Assembly (NCBI GenBank): GCA_036769805.1
Contig: DAIPKK010000001.1
Location: 1 to 55,715 of the forward strand
Reading direction: 5' to 3'
Length of the DNA stretch: 55,715 bases
Source of the DNA: Patescibacteria group bacterium
Lineage (GTDB): Bacteria; Patescibacteriota; Patescibacteriia; DYGC01
In this document: positions 1,238-46,610 of the stretch, one piece after another
Layout of the letters: the number at the start of each line of letters is the position of its first letter
Position numbering within the stretch: the first letter of the stretch is position 1
The notes under the pieces: generated by a model
The model's database searches: none
The model's input: the letters and a program-made list of their open reading frames with translations, nothing else
What the model was told of the DNA's origin: nothing
Translations under genes and position numbers: made by a program

Positions 1238-1253
1238 ATTGTCTTGTTTTTTT

Positions 1254-1271
1254 GCCGCCTATTAGCTTGTG
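1254..1271 (+). repeat. 18-nt motif GCCGCCTATTAGCTTGTG (identical second copy at 42528-42545)
   Basis: Exact 18/18 repeat. 14/18 identical to the GCCGCCCATTAGCCCGAG end of the element at 30518. Complementary to an arm of the adjacent structured element. Confidence 0.7.
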
Positions 1272-1272
1272 T

Positions 1273-1409
1273 CACCACCTCTTAATTTTTATTTCACCCT
1301 CCTGGTCCGAACGGAAAATTTTGGGTTCGTTTTTCGTTTACACTTAAACTCACCTCAAAATTTTAACCTTCTCGGCCCAATGGGCGATATAAAAATTAAG
1401 AGGATGGTG
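1273..1409. repeat. structured non-coding element, copy 1 (candidate sRNA or MITE-like element)
   Basis: About nine of ten positions identical by eye to 42366-42498. Bounded by the inverted repeat CTCTTAATTTTT/AAAAATTAAGAG, with nested helices inside. No plausible ORF. Strand undetermined. Confidence 0.6.
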
Positions 1410-1448: not shown

Positions 1449-1502
1449 CTTGTTCTAGCCCTTGTTCTATTTTTAAAAATTTGCTACAATACCAATGTAG
1501 CA
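1449..1502 (+). promoter_or_regulatory. lexA promoter with candidate operators
   Basis: -35 TTGTTC (1462-1467), 17-nt spacer, extended -10 TGcTACAAT (1482-1490). Direct repeat CTTGTTCTA x2 gives GTTC-N8-GTTC over the -35. Palindrome TGCTACA-N7-TGTAGCA (1482-1502) lies over the -10. Confidence 0.5.
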
Positions 1503-9007: not shown

Positions 9008-9245
9008 GATTATATGTGATTGGTTTGGTGTAAGGGCGGATGAGAAGTTTATCCCCGGTCTTGAACTTTGATTCGTCTGATGTCAGCGTTGTTGAAATTT
9101 TGTTGAAAGCTACCAGCTTTAAGTGGTTCTTTTGTCCTGTCTGATGGGCTATGATGTTATTTTTTGTTTTTGTGTGTTTTATAATGTGAAGTGATGTAGT
9201 TTGTTTCAAATAATTGGTTTTTTGTCGCCCCTTGTTTTTTGTCTT

Positions 9246-9350
9246 GTCATCCTGAACTTGTTTCAGGATCTTTAATGTGTGACAGTAAGTTGATTATGAT
9301 AATGGTGATTATTTTTTGTATTAAAGATTCCGAACCAAGTTCGGAATGAC
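9246..9350. repeat. GTCAT-hairpin repeat, inverted pair (type A, copy 1)
   Basis: GTCATCCTGAACTTGTTTCAGGATCTTTAAT ... ATTAAAGATTCCGAACCAAGTTCGGAATGAC. Each arm is its own 8-bp hairpin. Confidence 0.75.
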
Positions 9351-9473
9351 AATAACGACGTTTATTTAGATGAATCAGTGGTTCAAAAGCGTGAATTATC
9401 ACCGAAGCGGCGAGTTGGACTATGATTTTATTTGATGTTAATATAAAAAGACCTTAGTCATCAGGAAAATTTT

Positions 9474-11377: not shown

Positions 11378-12370
11378 ATGAAAGAAATTATTTTTTCGGG
11401 AACTAAGCCGAGTGGCGATTTACATTTGGGAAATTATTTGGGTGCGATTAGAAATTGGGTTCAGTTACAAAATGAAAATAGCGGAACAAATTATTTTTCC
11501 GTGGTGGATTTGCATGCTATCACTGTTCCGCAAGAACCGATTGAGCTTCGTCGTCGCAGTTTGGAAATCGCCAAATTATTTTTAAGTTTGGGGATTGATC
11601 CTAAAAAATCGGTGGTTTTTTTGCAGTCTGATGTGCGAGAACATGTTGAATTGTCTTGGATTTTAACCTGCATTGCCGGTATGGGCGAATTGGGAAAAAT
11701 GACTCAATTCAAAGAAAAAACCGAAAAACAAGAACATATTGGCGCCGGTTTATTTATGTATCCGGTTTTAATGGCAGCTGATATTTTATTGTATGATACG
11801 ACAAAGGTCCCGGTTGGTGATGACCAAGTGCAACATGTGGAATTAGCCCGAAACTTGGCGGAGCGTTTTAACCATCGTTTTGGCGAAGGATCTTTGGTGG
11901 TGCCGCAATATTCCATCAATAAAATCGGCAGTCGCGTGATGGGCTTGCAAAACCCGGAAAAGAAAATGAGCAAGAGTGATGGCGGTGAAAAGAATTTGAT
12001 TTATATTTTAAAAGACAGTCCGGAAAGTGCTTTTAAGAAAATCAAATCAGCGGTGACTGATAATTTTGCCAAGGTGCGTTATGATTGGGAAAATCAACCC
12101 GGTGTCAGTAACCTCTTGGAAATTTATAGCATTTTGGAAAATATGCCGATTGAAAAAACCGAACAACAATTTGATTCAGCCAGCTATGGTGATTTCAAAC
12201 AAGCGGTTGGTGAGAGCGTTGCCAAGTTTTTGACCGGCGTGCAAGAACGTTATAATCAGTTATCCAATGAATATATGTTGGAAGTTTTGGCACAAGGTGC
12301 GGAAAAAGCACGCGATGTGGCGCGCGCTAAAATGGAAAAAATTTATAGTTTAATTGGAATTATTAAATAA
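11378..12370 (+). CDS. trpS: tryptophan--tRNA ligase
   Basis: HIGH-type motif GDLHLGNYLG and KMSKS motif. About 330 aa, typical of TrpRS. Confidence 0.9.
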   Translation: MKEIIFSGTKPSGDLHLGNYLGAIRNWVQLQNENSGTNYFSVVDLHAITVPQEPIELRRRSLEIAKLFLSLGIDPKKSVVFLQSDVREHVELSWILTCIAGMGELGKMTQFKEKTEKQEHIGAGLFMYPVLMAADILLYDTTKVPVGDDQVQHVELARNLAERFNHRFGEGSLVVPQYSINKIGSRVMGLQNPEKKMSKSDGGEKNLIYILKDSPESAFKKIKSAVTDNFAKVRYDWENQPGVSNLLEIYSILENMPIEKTEQQFDSASYGDFKQAVGESVAKFLTGVQERYNQLSNEYMLEVLAQGAEKARDVARAKMEKIYSLIGIIK

Positions 12371-29489: not shown

Positions 29490-30473
29490 ATGCAAACCAT
29501 TGGTTTATTTTTTGGCGGTCCGAGCAATGAACATGAAGTTTCAATCAGTTCTGCCAAAAATATTGTTGCTAATTTTCCCGATAAAAAATATAAGTTGCTT
29601 TTAGTTTTTTGGGATAAACAGGGAAAATTTTATCTTGTCAAAAATATTGATGATTTGCGAAAAAATCGCCAAGCGATTGTTGAGGAAAAATTAAAAGAAA
29701 AGATTGATATTGCTTTATTGATGACCCATGGAAAAAACGGCGAGGATGGGGGTTTGCAAAGTTTGTTGGAATCACAAAAGATAAAATATTGTGGTTGCCG
29801 ACCGTTGAGTTCAGCGTTGTGTATGGATAAAGGTTTGTTTAAACAGTTTTTGGCGGGGCAAGGCATTAAACAAGTGAAATTTTCCGTACTTGATTATAAT
29901 TTGCACACTGATCGGGAATTATCAGCGATTAAGGATAGCATTAGGAAAACTTTTAAATTGCCGATTTATGTAAAGCCTGCCAATTCCGGTTCTTCAGTGG
30001 GAATTACTAAAGTTGTAAAATTTTCTCAGTTGCCGGAGGCGCTTACGGAGGCTTTAAAGCATGATAATAAAATCGTCGTGGAGGAGGGTTTGCTTAATCC
30101 CAGAGAAATTGAAGTGGCGGTTTTGGGTAATAAGGAATTAAAAATTTCCAGCCCGGGAGAGTTGCAGTTGGCCAAGGATTTTTACAGTTATGATGATAAA
30201 TACAACTTGGGGCAGGCGACGGTGCAAATTCCAGCGAAATTATCTTTGAAACAAAAGAACGAAATCGCAAAGTTGGCGGAACGTGTTTATAAGTTGTGTC
30301 TTTGCTCAGGGTTTGCTCGAATCGATTTTTTTATTAGTGATAACCAGGTTTATTTGAATGAAATTAACACCTTACCGGGATTTACCAATATTTCCATGTA
30401 CCCAATGTTAATGATGAATACCGGTATGACTTATCAAGATTTGATTATCGCCATTTTGCAATTAGCATATTAG
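29490..30473 (+). CDS. ddl: D-alanine--D-alanine ligase
   Basis: FGGPSNEHEVSISS, HGKNGEDGGLQSLLE, an ATP-grasp core, and C-terminal NEINTLPGFT. Confidence 0.9.
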   Translation: MQTIGLFFGGPSNEHEVSISSAKNIVANFPDKKYKLLLVFWDKQGKFYLVKNIDDLRKNRQAIVEEKLKEKIDIALLMTHGKNGEDGGLQSLLESQKIKYCGCRPLSSALCMDKGLFKQFLAGQGIKQVKFSVLDYNLHTDRELSAIKDSIRKTFKLPIYVKPANSGSSVGITKVVKFSQLPEALTEALKHDNKIVVEEGLLNPREIEVAVLGNKELKISSPGELQLAKDFYSYDDKYNLGQATVQIPAKLSLKQKNEIAKLAERVYKLCLCSGFARIDFFISDNQVYLNEINTLPGFTNISMYPMLMMNTGMTYQDLIIAILQLAY

Positions 30474-30517
30474 TTTTTGGTGTAATGTTAATTTTGTTTT
30501 TTGTATTGATTTTTAAT

Positions 30518-30699
30518 GCCGCCCATTAGCCCGAGGAGGTAAAAATTTGAAGGTGAGTTGGCTTGGTTTTGGCAAAGCCAAAATCCGAGCAGTTTGTTCG
30601 AGTCAACCGTTTTGGCTTTAAGAAAGACAAAACGGTGACGAGTTTGCGAGGAAAAGCCGGCGAACCTTATAAATTTTCCGTTCGGGCTAGCAGGGCGGC
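30518..30699. repeat. structured non-coding element, copy 3 (longer, inverted relative to copies 1 and 2; candidate sRNA)
   Basis: The reverse complement aligns with copies 1/2 at both arms, the CGAAC..GTTCG hairpin and the CTCACCT..AAATTTT..ACCT..CTCGG strand. Arm helices change sequence but keep pairing. A T6 tract follows on the + strand. I tentatively favour + here. Confidence 0.6.
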
Positions 30700-30817
30700 G
30701 TTTTTTGGTGCCACCTTTTGTACACACAAAAGGTGGCAAAGGGATTGTTTACAAACCCCAAATCAAAATGCTACAATCATTTAATACGATTATAATTTTT
30801 TAATTGAATAAAATCCT

Positions 30818-32635: not shown

Positions 32636-32689
32636 GATTGTTTTAAAATTAATGCGAACGTGATTAGAGTTAGACCAATTGTGACCGGT

Positions 32690-32771
32690 GTCATGCCGAA
32701 CTTGTTTCGGCATCTTTAATACGTTGGAGGCTGGTCTTATATTAAAGATCCTGAAACAAGTTCAGGATGAC
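32690..32771. repeat. GTCAT-hairpin repeat, inverted pair (type A, copy 2)
   Basis: GTCATGCCGAACTTGTTTCGGCATCTTTAAT ... ATTAAAGATCCTGAAACAAGTTCAGGATGAC. An extra GGATGACAGA half-site lies at 32807-32816. Confidence 0.75.
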
Positions 32772-32843
32772 AGAATCGTCGTTTGGCATTATATAAATGC
32801 CATATCGGATGACAGACAGCCATTTTATCATTAAATCTTTCGC

Positions 32844-42223: not shown

Positions 42224-42244
42224 TATTGACTTGAATGATAAAAA

Positions 42245-42274
42245 AAGAAGCTCTAAATCGGGCTTCTTTTTTGT
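42245..42274 (+). terminator. intrinsic terminator
   Basis: AAGAAGC/GCTTCTT stem followed by a T run. Confidence 0.6.
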
Positions 42275-42365
42275 TTTTTAATTTTTGTTACGCCTACTAC
42301 GTTTATTCGCGATAATATTTTTGAACTGACAAATATGACAAAATTTTTGTGTCGTCCATTGGTAG

Positions 42366-42498
42366 TGCAACTCTTAATTTTTCTTTCGCCCTCCTGGTCC
42401 GAACGGAAAATTTTGGGTTCGTTTTCGTGTTAACTCAAACTCACCTCAAAATTTTAACCTTCTCGGACCAATGGGCGGCATAAAAATTAAGAGTCGCA
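42366..42498. repeat. structured non-coding element, copy 2
   Basis: Near-identical to 1273-1409. Same CTCTTAATTTTT/AAAAATTAAGAG inverted repeat, here extended by TGCAA/TCGCA. Confidence 0.6.
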
Positions 42499-42527
42499 AG
42501 AATGTACGGTGAAACACATTTTTTATG

Positions 42528-42545
42528 GCCGCCTATTAGCTTGTG
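42528..42545 (+). repeat. 18-nt motif GCCGCCTATTAGCTTGTG (second copy)
   Basis: Exact match to 1254-1271. Confidence 0.7.
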
Positions 42546-44989: not shown

Positions 44990-45050
44990 GCGTTTGTTTT
45001 TTCGCGCTAAAAATTGTATAATATTTTTATAATTGTTTTATGCTAAGTTT

Positions 45051-46610
45051 ATGAAATATTGGCGGTTTATCGGTTTAACGGTGCTGGCGCTGGGATTGCT
45101 TTTCGGCGGGGCGCGTGGGGGGCGGGCGGCTTACGGTGATTATCGTAATGTCAAAAGTGCGATTGTTAAAATTTTGTGTACCATTAAAAGTGGGAATGAT
45201 TATTATCAATCAAACGGTTCGGCGGTTTTGGTGTCGCCGAATGGAAAACTGTTGACCAATGCCCATGTCGTGAAAATTCTTCCCAACGATGAAGCCTATT
45301 GTCAGGGTTCAATTATTTCCGATCCTAATTCTTATGATCCGGCCATAAGTTTCAACATTGATTTTTTCTATTTTGATTATGAGGCGGACGTGGCTTTCGG
45401 GCAGGTTGATTCCTCCAAAGACGGTTTGGATTATTATTTGCCGCAATCGGTTTATATTCCGGTTTATCCTTATTTGAATTTGGAATTTCAAAATTATCGT
45501 GGAGAAAAAATTTGGCTTTTGGGTTTTCCGTCATTGAGTAATGGTTCCTTGAATATTACGGAGGGGACGGTTTTGTATAAAGACACTGATGACGGACAGA
45601 ATGTTTTGTTTACCGATGCCGTGGTGTTTGCTGGTAATTCCGGGGGCGCGGGGATTAATGATCAAGACAAATTATTGGGTTTGGTCACCAGTTTGGAAGA
45701 AAAAAATCAGGTGGCGCATATTTTGGATATTGATTTTTTGTATCGTCAGCGCGAGAAATTATTACAAATTTCCGGGGTGGACGTGGCTCGGGCGCGTAGT
45801 TTCATTGATGAAATTTTGACTTTAAATAACGCCTTCAGCGAAGCGGTTGATCAATATCCGGATACGCAGGGACGTTGCATGGAAAATGCTTATCGTGTTG
45901 GTGAAAATTCTTGTCAATGTAACGATGGCTACATTTTGTATAATTATCAGTGTATCACTTACGAACAAGCTTGTCGTAATTGGTATGGTGATTACAGTAC
46001 ATTTTCCGAATCAACGCAGATTGACAGTAAAGAAGTAAAATTGACTTGTTCCTGCCAAGCCGGCAGTCATTTTAATGAAAGTTATACCGCTTGCGTGTTG
46101 GATGCCACGACCGCCCCCCCTGCTTGGTTGTTGGCTAACGTGAAGGGGCGCCTGCTCTTACAGGTGGAGAATCGTGGTCGCATTTGGTATGTTTATCCGG
46201 TCAATAACTTGCGCTATGAAGTGACCAAAGAAAATATTTTGCCATTGTTCCGTTCTTTGTCGTTGGGAATTTCCAATTCGGATTTGGCGCGCATTCCTTT
46301 GGCTTGTTCGTCATTGAGCGCCGGTCAGGACTCGGACAAAGATGGTTTTAATGATCAAACAGAATGTCAAAATGGTTACAATATTTTTGGTAGTGGCAAG
46401 AAAATAAATGACAAAACCTTGGCGGCGCGCGTGAAGGGGCGTTTGTTGTTGCAAGTGGAAGATCGCGGTCGCATTTGGTATGTTCATCCGGTGTCTTTAA
46501 CCGCTTATGAAGTGCGTTTGGATAATTTTATGGATTTATTCCGTTCTTTATCGTTGGGAATCAGTAATGCCAATTTGGGTTTGTTGGGGCAAGGAATTTT
46601 TGATAAATAA
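45051..46610 (+). CDS. secreted trypsin-like serine protease with a Cys-rich region and two C-terminal repeat modules
   Basis: Signal peptide. LLTNAHV (His) and GNSGGA (Ser) motifs. CxC-rich segment. Duplicated VKGRLLLQVE-RGRIWYV-P...LFRSLSLGIS module. Confidence 0.65.
   Translation: MKYWRFIGLTVLALGLLFGGARGGRAAYGDYRNVKSAIVKILCTIKSGNDYYQSNGSAVLVSPNGKLLTNAHVVKILPNDEAYCQGSIISDPNSYDPAISFNIDFFYFDYEADVAFGQVDSSKDGLDYYLPQSVYIPVYPYLNLEFQNYRGEKIWLLGFPSLSNGSLNITEGTVLYKDTDDGQNVLFTDAVVFAGNSGGAGINDQDKLLGLVTSLEEKNQVAHILDIDFLYRQREKLLQISGVDVARARSFIDEILTLNNAFSEAVDQYPDTQGRCMENAYRVGENSCQCNDGYILYNYQCITYEQACRNWYGDYSTFSESTQIDSKEVKLTCSCQAGSHFNESYTACVLDATTAPPAWLLANVKGRLLLQVENRGRIWYVYPVNNLRYEVTKENILPLFRSLSLGISNSDLARIPLACSSLSAGQDSDKDGFNDQTECQNGYNIFGSGKKINDKTLAARVKGRLLLQVEDRGRIWYVHPVSLTAYEVRLDNFMDLFRSLSLGISNANLGLLGQGIFDK

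Follow-up and report, generated by a model that had tools for sequence, protein, structure and literature searches.

ERIC sequences (IRU) of the enterobacteria are non-coding, intergenic, imperfect palindromes of about 127 bp that occur in either orientation and in different size classes, vary between strains and have no identified transposase. The Correia elements of Neisseria, which are miniature inverted-repeat transposable elements (MITEs), possess 26-bp terminal inverted repeats (TIRs), duplicate a TA target, are present in hundreds of copies, give rise to hairpin RNA and can act as terminators. Here we describe a hairpin-forming element from a Patescibacteria group bacterium. Three copies are located in the analysed stretch of 55,715 nt, hereafter the window (assembly GCA_036769805.1, contig DAIPKK010000001.1, positions 1-55,715, forward strand). 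The element is probably a lineage-restricted, non-coding, hairpin-forming intergenic repeat that behaves as a small non-autonomous mobile element comparable to MITEs, ERIC and Correia sequences. It represents a new family within an already known kind of genomic object, and such elements have hardly been described in bacteria of the candidate phyla radiation (CPR); a search of the literature on Patescibacteria for MITEs or hairpin repeats yielded nothing relevant. Patescibacteria have small, streamlined genomes whose non-coding content has received almost no study.

An earlier reading of the window, made from the sequence alone (sequence-only reading), had offered an sRNA (small RNA) gene, a MITE-like mobile element or a protein-bound DNA structure as explanations. 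The second option fits best. The family resembles a mobile element rather than an sRNA gene because it is present at several loci, in both orientations and in size classes formed by deletion, because it is gained, lost and replaced at the strain level, because it leaves remnant arms and because it is non-coding. In common with MITEs, the units are short, non-coding and multi-locus, and an insertion polymorphism is present between close relatives. Each of the three copies in the window follows the stop codon of one gene and precedes the promoter of the next, co-directional one. The proteins encoded next to them are housekeeping proteins (IscS, LexA, Ddl, ThrRS, DnaX and ComEC), whose nearest named homologues belong to Patescibacteria/Parcubacteria. 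In the following, L-numbers (L002-L061) denote retrieved contigs of relatives and comparison contigs, F the orientation in which the sequence-only reading wrote the element, and R the opposite strand.

Members and architecture of the family

Copy 1 is a short form of 124 nt (1279-1402, plus strand, F; 81.4 bits with the covariance model) between iscS (41-1237) and the lexA promoter, bounded by CTCTTAATTTTT and AAAAATTAAGAG. A locus-specific stem extension, CACCAC / G(A)TGGTG, enlarges its hairpin to 1273-1409. Copy 2 (42371-42493, plus strand; 87.5 bits) has the best preserved helices; including the extension TGCAA / TCGCA its hairpin covers 42366-42498. It lies past the canonical terminator (42241-42272) of a gene for a 220-aa protein and ahead of the comEC promoter. 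As stated in the sequence-only reading, the two short copies agree at about nine of ten positions (91 % identity over 127 nt) within unrelated flanks. A core 32-mer common to both occurs exactly twice in the window at an expectation of zero, and the 12-mer CTCTTAATTTTT is present without mismatch only at the four ends of these copies, which confirms the perfect 12-bp inverted repeat reported before. The inverted repeat continues for 4-7 bp past the 12-mer into the locus-specific, non-homologous flanks. Either fold-back or template-switch growth or an insertion into pre-existing short palindromes could explain this extension; in the former case, the palindrome would grow into its flanks by template switching. 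Each short copy folds as one long imperfect hairpin with a minimum free energy of -52 to -65 kcal/mol (z = -8.3 to -10.5 versus dinucleotide shuffles). The nested helices CGCCC/GGGCG and TGGTCCGA/TCGGACCA that had been read in both copies are present in both, and they are perfect in copy 2, but each has one mismatch in copy 1 (CACCC; TCGGCCCA). With an A.C mismatch in helix P1 and a T.C mismatch in helix P2, copy 1 is the most degenerate short copy. Stem mismatches were also observed in the third short copy, on L022. The short copies diverge from one another by 6-10 %.

The third member proposed by the sequence-only reading is real, but it turned out to be a long form on the minus strand without the 12-bp terminal repeat. 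This copy 3 of about 240 nt (30505-30745, F on the minus strand) is located between ddl and the thrS promoter. It comprises the hairpin H0, the linker ACCAAAAAAC, a multi-branched hairpin of 182 nt (30518-30699) and a tail (30505-30517), and shares 91 % identity over 231 nt with L041 and 80 % with L038. H0 has 28 nt, occurs attached to long and medium forms only and is in copy 3 a perfect 10-bp hairpin, GCCACCTTTT-gtgtgtac-AAAAGGTGGC (30710-30737, minus strand), with an 11-6-11 arrangement as duplex DNA. The linker is identical across all four H0-bearing long and medium copies; in L029, the equivalent of the P1 3' arm and linker on the R strand is GGGCG followed by T8. A short stretch, GTTTTTGGTG (30473-30482, plus strand), repeats the junction of linker and H0, GTTTTTTGGTG (30700-30710), in direct orientation; the two flank the big hairpin. 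Two units, copy 3 (30473-30482) and that of L038 (near 12320), carry such incomplete direct repeats of H0 3' arm and linker at their far end.

Further members were recognised by exact-pattern scans, in orthologous regions of relatives and through a protein search with a spurious open reading frame (ORF). They are located after lepA, as a short form in L015 and L022 (flanks CCCGCC/G(G)GGCGGG) and as a long form at the same slot in L038 and L039; in L041, as a long form; in L042, a medium form between lexA and a HAD hydrolase gene; and in L029, L031 and L033, a medium form at the orthologous iscS-lexA slot, R-oriented in L029. The family is thus present at no fewer than six distinct loci with unit sizes of 123-245 nt. 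On the F strand, the long form consists of H0, the linker ACCAAAAAAC, the 5' strands of P1 (GCCGCCC), P2 (CTAGCCCGA) and P3 (GG-AAAATTT), the tip, the 3' strands of P3 (AAATTTT-NN-CC), P2 (TCGGGCTA) and P1 (GGGCGGC), and the tail ATTAAAAAYYAA. Three types of tip exist: long, a branched domain with two hairpins; medium, in L042 and L029; and short, with about 30 nt.

The 123-nt unit had been taken for the whole family, but the comparison with the long forms indicates that it is an internal-deletion derivative of a parent of about 240 nt. This assignment follows from the alignment of the short form to L038 on either side of a gap that ends in a direct repeat, CGCAAACTCG / CTCAAACTCA. At the deletion junction, L038 reads GGGCTCGTTTTTCGTTT-CCTCGCAAACTCG...CACTCAAACTCACC and copy 1 reads GGGTTCGTTTTTCGTTT-ACACTTAAACTCACC. 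The parent would have comprised the 28-nt H0, an A6 linker and a short A-rich tail, with a long hairpin between linker and tail whose base is conserved and whose tip can be replaced. The short form would have arisen when a deletion between AAACTC(G/A) direct repeats removed about 85 nt from the tip and when H0 and linker were lost. Short forms lack both H0 and linker, and a left end turned into the inverted complement of the tail creates their 12-bp TIR.

Remnants of arms surround the short copies. A T-run with the 18-mer GCCGCCTATTAGCTTGTG (1247-1271, plus strand) resembles an R-oriented tail followed by P1 and the start of P2. The 18-mer itself (1254-1271), which is absent from the description in the sequence-only reading, lies 7 nt upstream of copy 1 and aligns with the 5' arm of the R-oriented L029 member at the orthologous iscS-lexA site and with positions 30510-30535 of the long form. 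Judged by this alignment, 1247-1271 is a probable remnant 5' arm of an older R-oriented copy. A second T-run with an exact repeat of the 18-mer (42528-42545) is located at 42521-42545 (plus strand), 34 nt downstream of copy 2. Between loci 1 and 2 the 18-mer equals the core in conservation, but it stands 5' of copy 1 and 3' of copy 2. Directly 5' of copy 2, the sequence AATTTTTGTGTCGTCCATTGGT (42342-42363, plus strand) is a degenerate R-type tail with P1 and the start of P2, which can pair with copy 2 at its 3' arm and tail (22-nt inverted repeat, 86 % complementary). Comparable degenerate motifs (GCCGCCTATTAG, GTCGTCCATTGG, GTTGTTTATTGG) precede all three short copies at a distance of 6-13 nt. 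They could be left over from older copies or mark a site where the element prefers to land.

The exact 5' hairpin pattern yielded 8 chance matches and no true homologue in GTDB genomes, the exact 3' motif 11 matches in JGI metagenomes, among which only L015 and L022 were real, and three exact-pattern scans of viral contigs 0, 0 and 16 chance matches; the covariance model found no member in these contigs either. Covariance model R1, representing the shared scaffold, was run over 415 kb of related and control DNA and returned known members only; the long forms obtain low scores because of their 100-nt tip insertion. In blastn searches of plasmid and phage collections, the long form had no match.

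The sequence-only reading had seen no ORF, and indeed none is conserved across the members. A coding element was rejected: the overlapping 83-aa ORFs of the window and L029 are unrelated to each other, and L038 has stop codons in all frames. The spurious ORF over copy 3 had only two relatives among 1.84 billion representative proteins, which are two more copies of the element, and a look-up in protein clusters added no members. Public assemblies contain predicted proteins of 67-83 aa across the repeats (window 30488-30739, minus strand; L029:6590-6841, minus strand; L041:1186-1407; L042:3495-3698). These predictions are spurious, because they are mutually unrelated or interrupted by stops in homologous copies.

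Covariation and strand asymmetry

Thirty-four base pairs of H0, P1, P2 and P3 were evaluated in an alignment of nine sequences, with 500 column shuffles and a sliding of the 3' partners by 1-3 columns as controls. The scaffold was 93 % paired. Double-sided changes affected 10 of the 34 pairs, versus 3.7±1.3 in the shuffles (0 of 500 reached 10) and 2-3 in the slid controls. In H0, the variants GCCACC/GGTGGC, GCTACC/GGTAGC (L038) and GCCCCC/GGGGGC (L041) were observed, in P2 TAGCCCGA/TCGGGCTA, TGGTCCGC/GCGGACCA and TAGCCCAA/TTGGGCTA, and in P3 AAAATTT/AAATTTT versus ATAATTT/AAATTAT in L038. The helices of the family are maintained by compensatory changes, and with the relatives included the description as a structured element has gained support. 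The AAAATTT/AAAATTT pairing, for which a pseudoknot had been suggested, is real and changes in a compensatory way to ATAATTT/AAATTAT in L038, yet as a helix it is nested within a single long hairpin. The local CGAAC-N13-GTTCG hairpin, which had also been proposed and which a pseudoknot would require, is broken in L038, L042 and L029 and kept in L041, where the substitution also preserves P2.

In all eight members examined for strand asymmetry, the R strand folds 6-20 kcal/mol better and with more G.U pairs. Paired changes in a DNA palindrome can arise through arm-to-arm template switching, known as quasi-palindrome correction, hence the covariation alone is no proof of selection at the RNA level. 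It is presumably the folded single strand that is recognised or selected, either as DNA during replication or transposition, or as read-through RNA.

Variation between strains

Four spacers appear as hot spots: iscS-lexA, ddl-thrS, the region upstream of comEC and the region downstream of lepA. Several families of long hairpins have been inserted, swapped and deleted at these spacers between strains with 97-98 % identical proteins. Empty or alternative states were observed at loci 2, 3 and 4, with flanking proteins of 91-98 % identity. The ddl-thrS slot contains copy 3 in the window and is without the element in L028, L059, L060 and L061, whose ThrRS is 97 % identical. L028 keeps ddl with a 66-nt spacer that retains ..GTGGCAAA.. 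and looks like a deletion scar. L059, L060 and L061 (ThrRS 97 %) as well as L025 and L026 (91 %) have neither ddl nor the element. In a comparison with L025, L026, L027 and L059-L061, only the window and L028 had the D-Ala-D-Ala ligase gene ddl (29490-30473) interposed between dtd and thrS. Because dtd abuts the thrS promoter in strains with 97 % ThrRS identity, ddl and its 3' repeat are themselves a variable insertion or deletion.

At the comEC slot, the window and L028 carry copy 2 in a segment of about 245 nt, the right edge of which is the second T-run and 18-mer (42521-42545); L025 has about 11 nt instead, and L059 an unrelated palindrome, TTCTGCCGTAGGGGCGTTGCA...TGCAACGCCCCTACGGCAGAA. 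Past the insert, the window, L025 and L059 all resume at the same ancestral flank, TGTGGA. The lepA slot is occupied by the short form in L022 and by the long form in L038, whose LepA is 98 % identical. At the iscS-lexA slot the window has the 18-mer and copy 1, L029 an R-oriented medium form and L042 another palindrome. The orientation to the neighbouring genes is mixed: R is co-directional in copy 3, L029 and L042, F in L038, L041 and the short copies. Contigs L002, L028 and L039 end inside or beside an element. These observations suggest that copies would be gained, lost and replaced at the DNA level.

Several points weigh against mobility as the explanation. No consistent target-site duplication was found at the TIR or extended-stem borders of the three short copies, where the flanks are inverted-complementary. 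Neither a transposase nor another mobilising enzyme with matching ends was found in the DNA examined, that is the window and the retrieved loci, and RAYT, TnpA and TnpB were not seen there. The copy number is low, with 3 in 55.7 kb and a handful in the retrieved DNA. Terminal inverted repeats are missing from the long and medium forms, the exact 12-bp repeat being confined to the derived short form. With 6-10 % divergence between short copies, the spread is not very recent. Presence and absence could partly result from the deletion of unstable palindromes or from homologous recombination of whole spacers instead of transposition. Finally, the conservation of the 123-nt core versus its arm-like flanks, together with the steady strand asymmetry, hints at a selection beyond selfish spread. 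The flanking nucleotides are only loosely similar (CTTT, TCTT, TTTT, TTCC, TTTC); the left flanks agree in no more than YTTY.

Transcription and alternative explanations

No sigma-70-like promoter or canonical terminator belonging to the elements was found. Upstream of the lexA promoter, copy 1 is probably inert, an insertion that has decayed slightly, and would be transcribed solely via read-through from iscS. On the R strand, copy 3 looks like a terminator: the 3' arm of P1, GGGCGGC, is followed by GTTTTTTGGT (30693-30709, plus strand), co-directional with ddl, and the plus strand folds with -91 kcal/mol. A G+C-rich stem with a U-tract is also present in L029, but on neither strand of copies 1 and 2. 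Where the R strand is co-directional with the upstream gene, as in copy 3 after ddl, the hairpin and U6 very probably serve as an intrinsic terminator.

This arrangement leads to an unlikely alternative, namely a domesticated cis-acting RNA module that functions on the R strand as a large intrinsic terminator and/or as a stabilising hairpin in the 3' untranslated region, its mobility being incidental. All long and medium forms end P1 in a U-tract on R (GGGCGGC-GUUUUUUGGU, or GGGCG-U8 in L029), R is the better-folding, G.U-containing strand throughout the family and is co-directional with the upstream gene in copy 3, L029 and L042, and for copy 3 and L029 no other terminator was visible by eye from the stop codon to the element. 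However, L038, L041 and all three short copies have the opposite orientation, a canonical short terminator already precedes copy 2 and L041, the element is dispensable in near-identical strains, and stems of 140-180 nt far exceed the needs of termination. As a general role, termination can be dismissed, because half of the copies are reversed, two are located behind ordinary terminators and the short forms have entirely lost the U-tract.

Mobility and R-strand activity may be combined in one improbable reading, a mobile structured module with R as the active single strand. As a terminator cassette it could be transposable and rewire the ends of operons in a streamlined CPR genome. As a hairpin of single-stranded DNA it could be moved by an unrecognised enzyme of the HUH type or a recombinase, home to remnants of its own arms and extend its palindrome into the flanks; homing is proposed because GYCGYCYATTRG motifs precede all three short copies.

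Quite unlikely is an independently transcribed sRNA with a conserved scaffold and a variable tip acting in trans. The covariation-supported structure, the strand-specific G.U pattern and a core more conserved than the adjoining sequence are consistent with such an RNA, and C-rich single-stranded motifs on the F strand (CCUCC, CUCACCUC) could pair with Shine-Dalgarno sequences. But a promoter-like site was found upstream on neither strand, the loci share no upstream sequence and the F strand has no terminator. The presence varies by strain, an internal deletion of 85 nt is tolerated, and compensatory changes can be generated by arm-to-arm template switching without selection on RNA. The discrete sRNA gene considered in the sequence-only reading is also at odds with the occurrence in both orientations and with presence or absence between strains that have 97-98 % identical flanking proteins. 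Its failure to match a known RNA class was reproduced: at the gathering threshold, Rfam, with its families such as tmRNA, RNase P, SRP, 6S, T-box, riboswitches, ribozymes and HEARO, recognised only 3 tRNAs in the whole window, and at E<=10 loci 1 and 3 gave noise (best MIR837, 22.9 bits versus a threshold of 117).

Other RNA and mobile-element classes were rejected individually. A T-box leader of thrS has no Rfam match, and the thrS promoter is located downstream of the element and conserved in strains without it. By sequence reading, an integron attC site is excluded by the hairpin base GCCGCCC...GGGCGGC and the lack of a RYYYAAC/GTTRRRY pair. For a tRNA-like or SINE origin and for a retron msr/msd, the architecture is wrong; a reverse transcriptase or integrase context was not seen in the annotated parts of the window and the loci.

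We regard it as very unlikely that the element is a protein-bound DNA site, either a site for site-specific recombination of the dif/lox type, based on the 11-6-11 geometry of H0, or a LexA operator. The arm-spacer-arm geometry of H0 with its TGTGTA/TATATA centre is as in core sites of tyrosine recombinases, the far ends of two units repeat part of the H0 3' arm and linker in direct orientation, and copy 1 adjoins lexA. Against a recombination site, the H0 arms co-vary to keep their pairing (GCTACC/GGTAGC, GCCCCC/GGGGGC), which reflects the need of a hairpin and not of half-sites; H0 is wholly missing from the short forms, and its arms are presumably unlike those of the dif consensus. The link to the LexA box drawn in the sequence-only reading was not supported: CGAAC and GTTCG are spaced by N13 instead of N4 and belong to the helices P2/P4 of every copy, including those far from lexA. 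A distance of about 80 nt separates the element from the lexA promoter downstream of it, and relatives without the short form conserve this promoter as well; a conserved direct repeat, TTGTTCTA, nearer to the promoter is the likelier operator.

The stem mismatches of copy 1 and the L022 copy, and remnant arms such as the 18-mers in the same spacers, could point to passive relics, with the copies as ancient segmental duplicates of a decaying palindrome, neither mobile nor functional. This reading is most improbable in view of members at six or more unrelated loci in both orientations, of different forms in one slot of near-identical strains and of the 10 double-sided changes.

A mobile non-coding repeat remains the preferred explanation. 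In practice, such elements break metagenome assemblies, yield spurious ORF calls of 67-83 aa and could pass for genes of non-coding RNAs; the covariation-supported structure of the family could enter RNA or repeat libraries. In the cell, they may add or remove terminators and alter the coupling of neighbouring genes.

Other palindromes and variable regions

Besides the described family, a second, unrelated palindrome family is present in the window at 9241-9353 and 32689-32773. It consists of two inverted short hairpins, TGTCATCCTGAACttgtTTCAGGATCTTTAAT ... ATTAAAGATTCCGAACcaaGTTCGGAATGACA, with a spacer of 18-43 nt, and looks REPIN-like in architecture, much more so than the element described above. 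Sequences resembling it occur in L042 (GTAGTCATTCCGGAA) and, between dtd and thrS, in L027 (GTCATCCTGAGCG). A T-run with GTCGCCCCTTG at 9215-9240 precedes one member and is similar to the motif upstream of the short copies. A third palindrome family, GGGATTCTGCCGTAGGGGCGTTGCA ... TGCAACGCCCCTACGGCAGAATC, was observed in L059:21330-21450 and L038:~12215-12300. It occupies in one strain the comEC slot that contains copy 2 in the window, and adjoins the long form in L038.

A direct repeat, TTGTTCTAgcccTTGTTCTA, is located at 1441-1460 just upstream of the lexA -35 region, and also in L029, L034 and L042. Relatives with a LexA identity as low as 72 % still have it, and it is a better candidate for the LexA operator than the CGAAC/GTTCG half-sites. 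Some promoters have the form TTTGCTAYAAT followed by a complementary TAGCA (window 1482-1502; L029, L038), e.g., TGCTACAATACCAATGTAGCA and then a T-run. In L029, the palindrome is kept with altered inner bases (TGCTATATTGTTTATATAGCA); it may be a hairpin of the 5' leader or an operator. The region downstream of lexA is variable. L029-L033 have two inserted genes, one with a faint match to N6-methylases (L029:7541-9575), L042 has a different gene for 303 aa (L042:1861-2772), and in L004 a gene for 179 aa, not the HAD hydrolase gene, follows lexA according to gene calls alone, the contig ending in this gene. The contigs L034-L037, from a relative with 72 % LexA identity and from different sequencing runs, all start at the same base 241 nt upstream of lexA, which suggests another assembly-breaking repeat. 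Elsewhere in the window, 46128-46578 is a tandem internal duplication with a unit of about 291 nt and 71-80 % identity within the ORF 45033-46610, presumably encoding a repeated protein domain.

Comparison with known systems

The long forms resemble intrinsic terminators in that the R strand presents a G+C-rich basal stem followed by U6-U8. They differ by the length of the stem-loop (140-180 nt), its branched tip and its conserved internal loops, and copies 1 and 2 have no U-tract. With REP/BIME/REPIN sequences, which RAYT transposases of the HUH type mobilise, and the PATEs derived from IS200/IS605, the family shares the definition by hairpins, the lack of a target duplication and the intergenic, often post-gene location; the strand asymmetry would be compatible with a single-stranded intermediate as in RAYT and IS200/IS605 systems. 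Unlike REP and REPIN sequences, it is not built of paired short REP palindromes but of one long asymmetric hairpin with a conserved base and a variable tip. In contrast to elements mobilised by RAYT or derived from IS200/IS605, no conserved target of 4-5 nt was recognised beside the ends. As regards PATEs, the long forms bear H0 at one terminus and the big hairpin close to the opposite one, and no target-site duplication accompanies them.

Correia elements have in common with the family the TIRs, two size classes formed via internal deletion, a hairpin RNA if co-transcribed, a possible function as terminator and presence or absence by strain; they differ in the target duplication, which was not found here, and in their TIRs, which the family has only in the derived short form. 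To ERIC there is no sequence relation, the host belongs to the CPR and the copies are far fewer; moreover, the long forms have the additional H0 and A6/U6 linker, and the short form has perfect 12-bp termini. The family shares with ERIC an intergenic palindrome of about 125 nt that folds as one long hairpin, the occurrence in both orientations, the variability between strains, size classes created by internal insertion or deletion at fixed points and the lack of an identified transposase.

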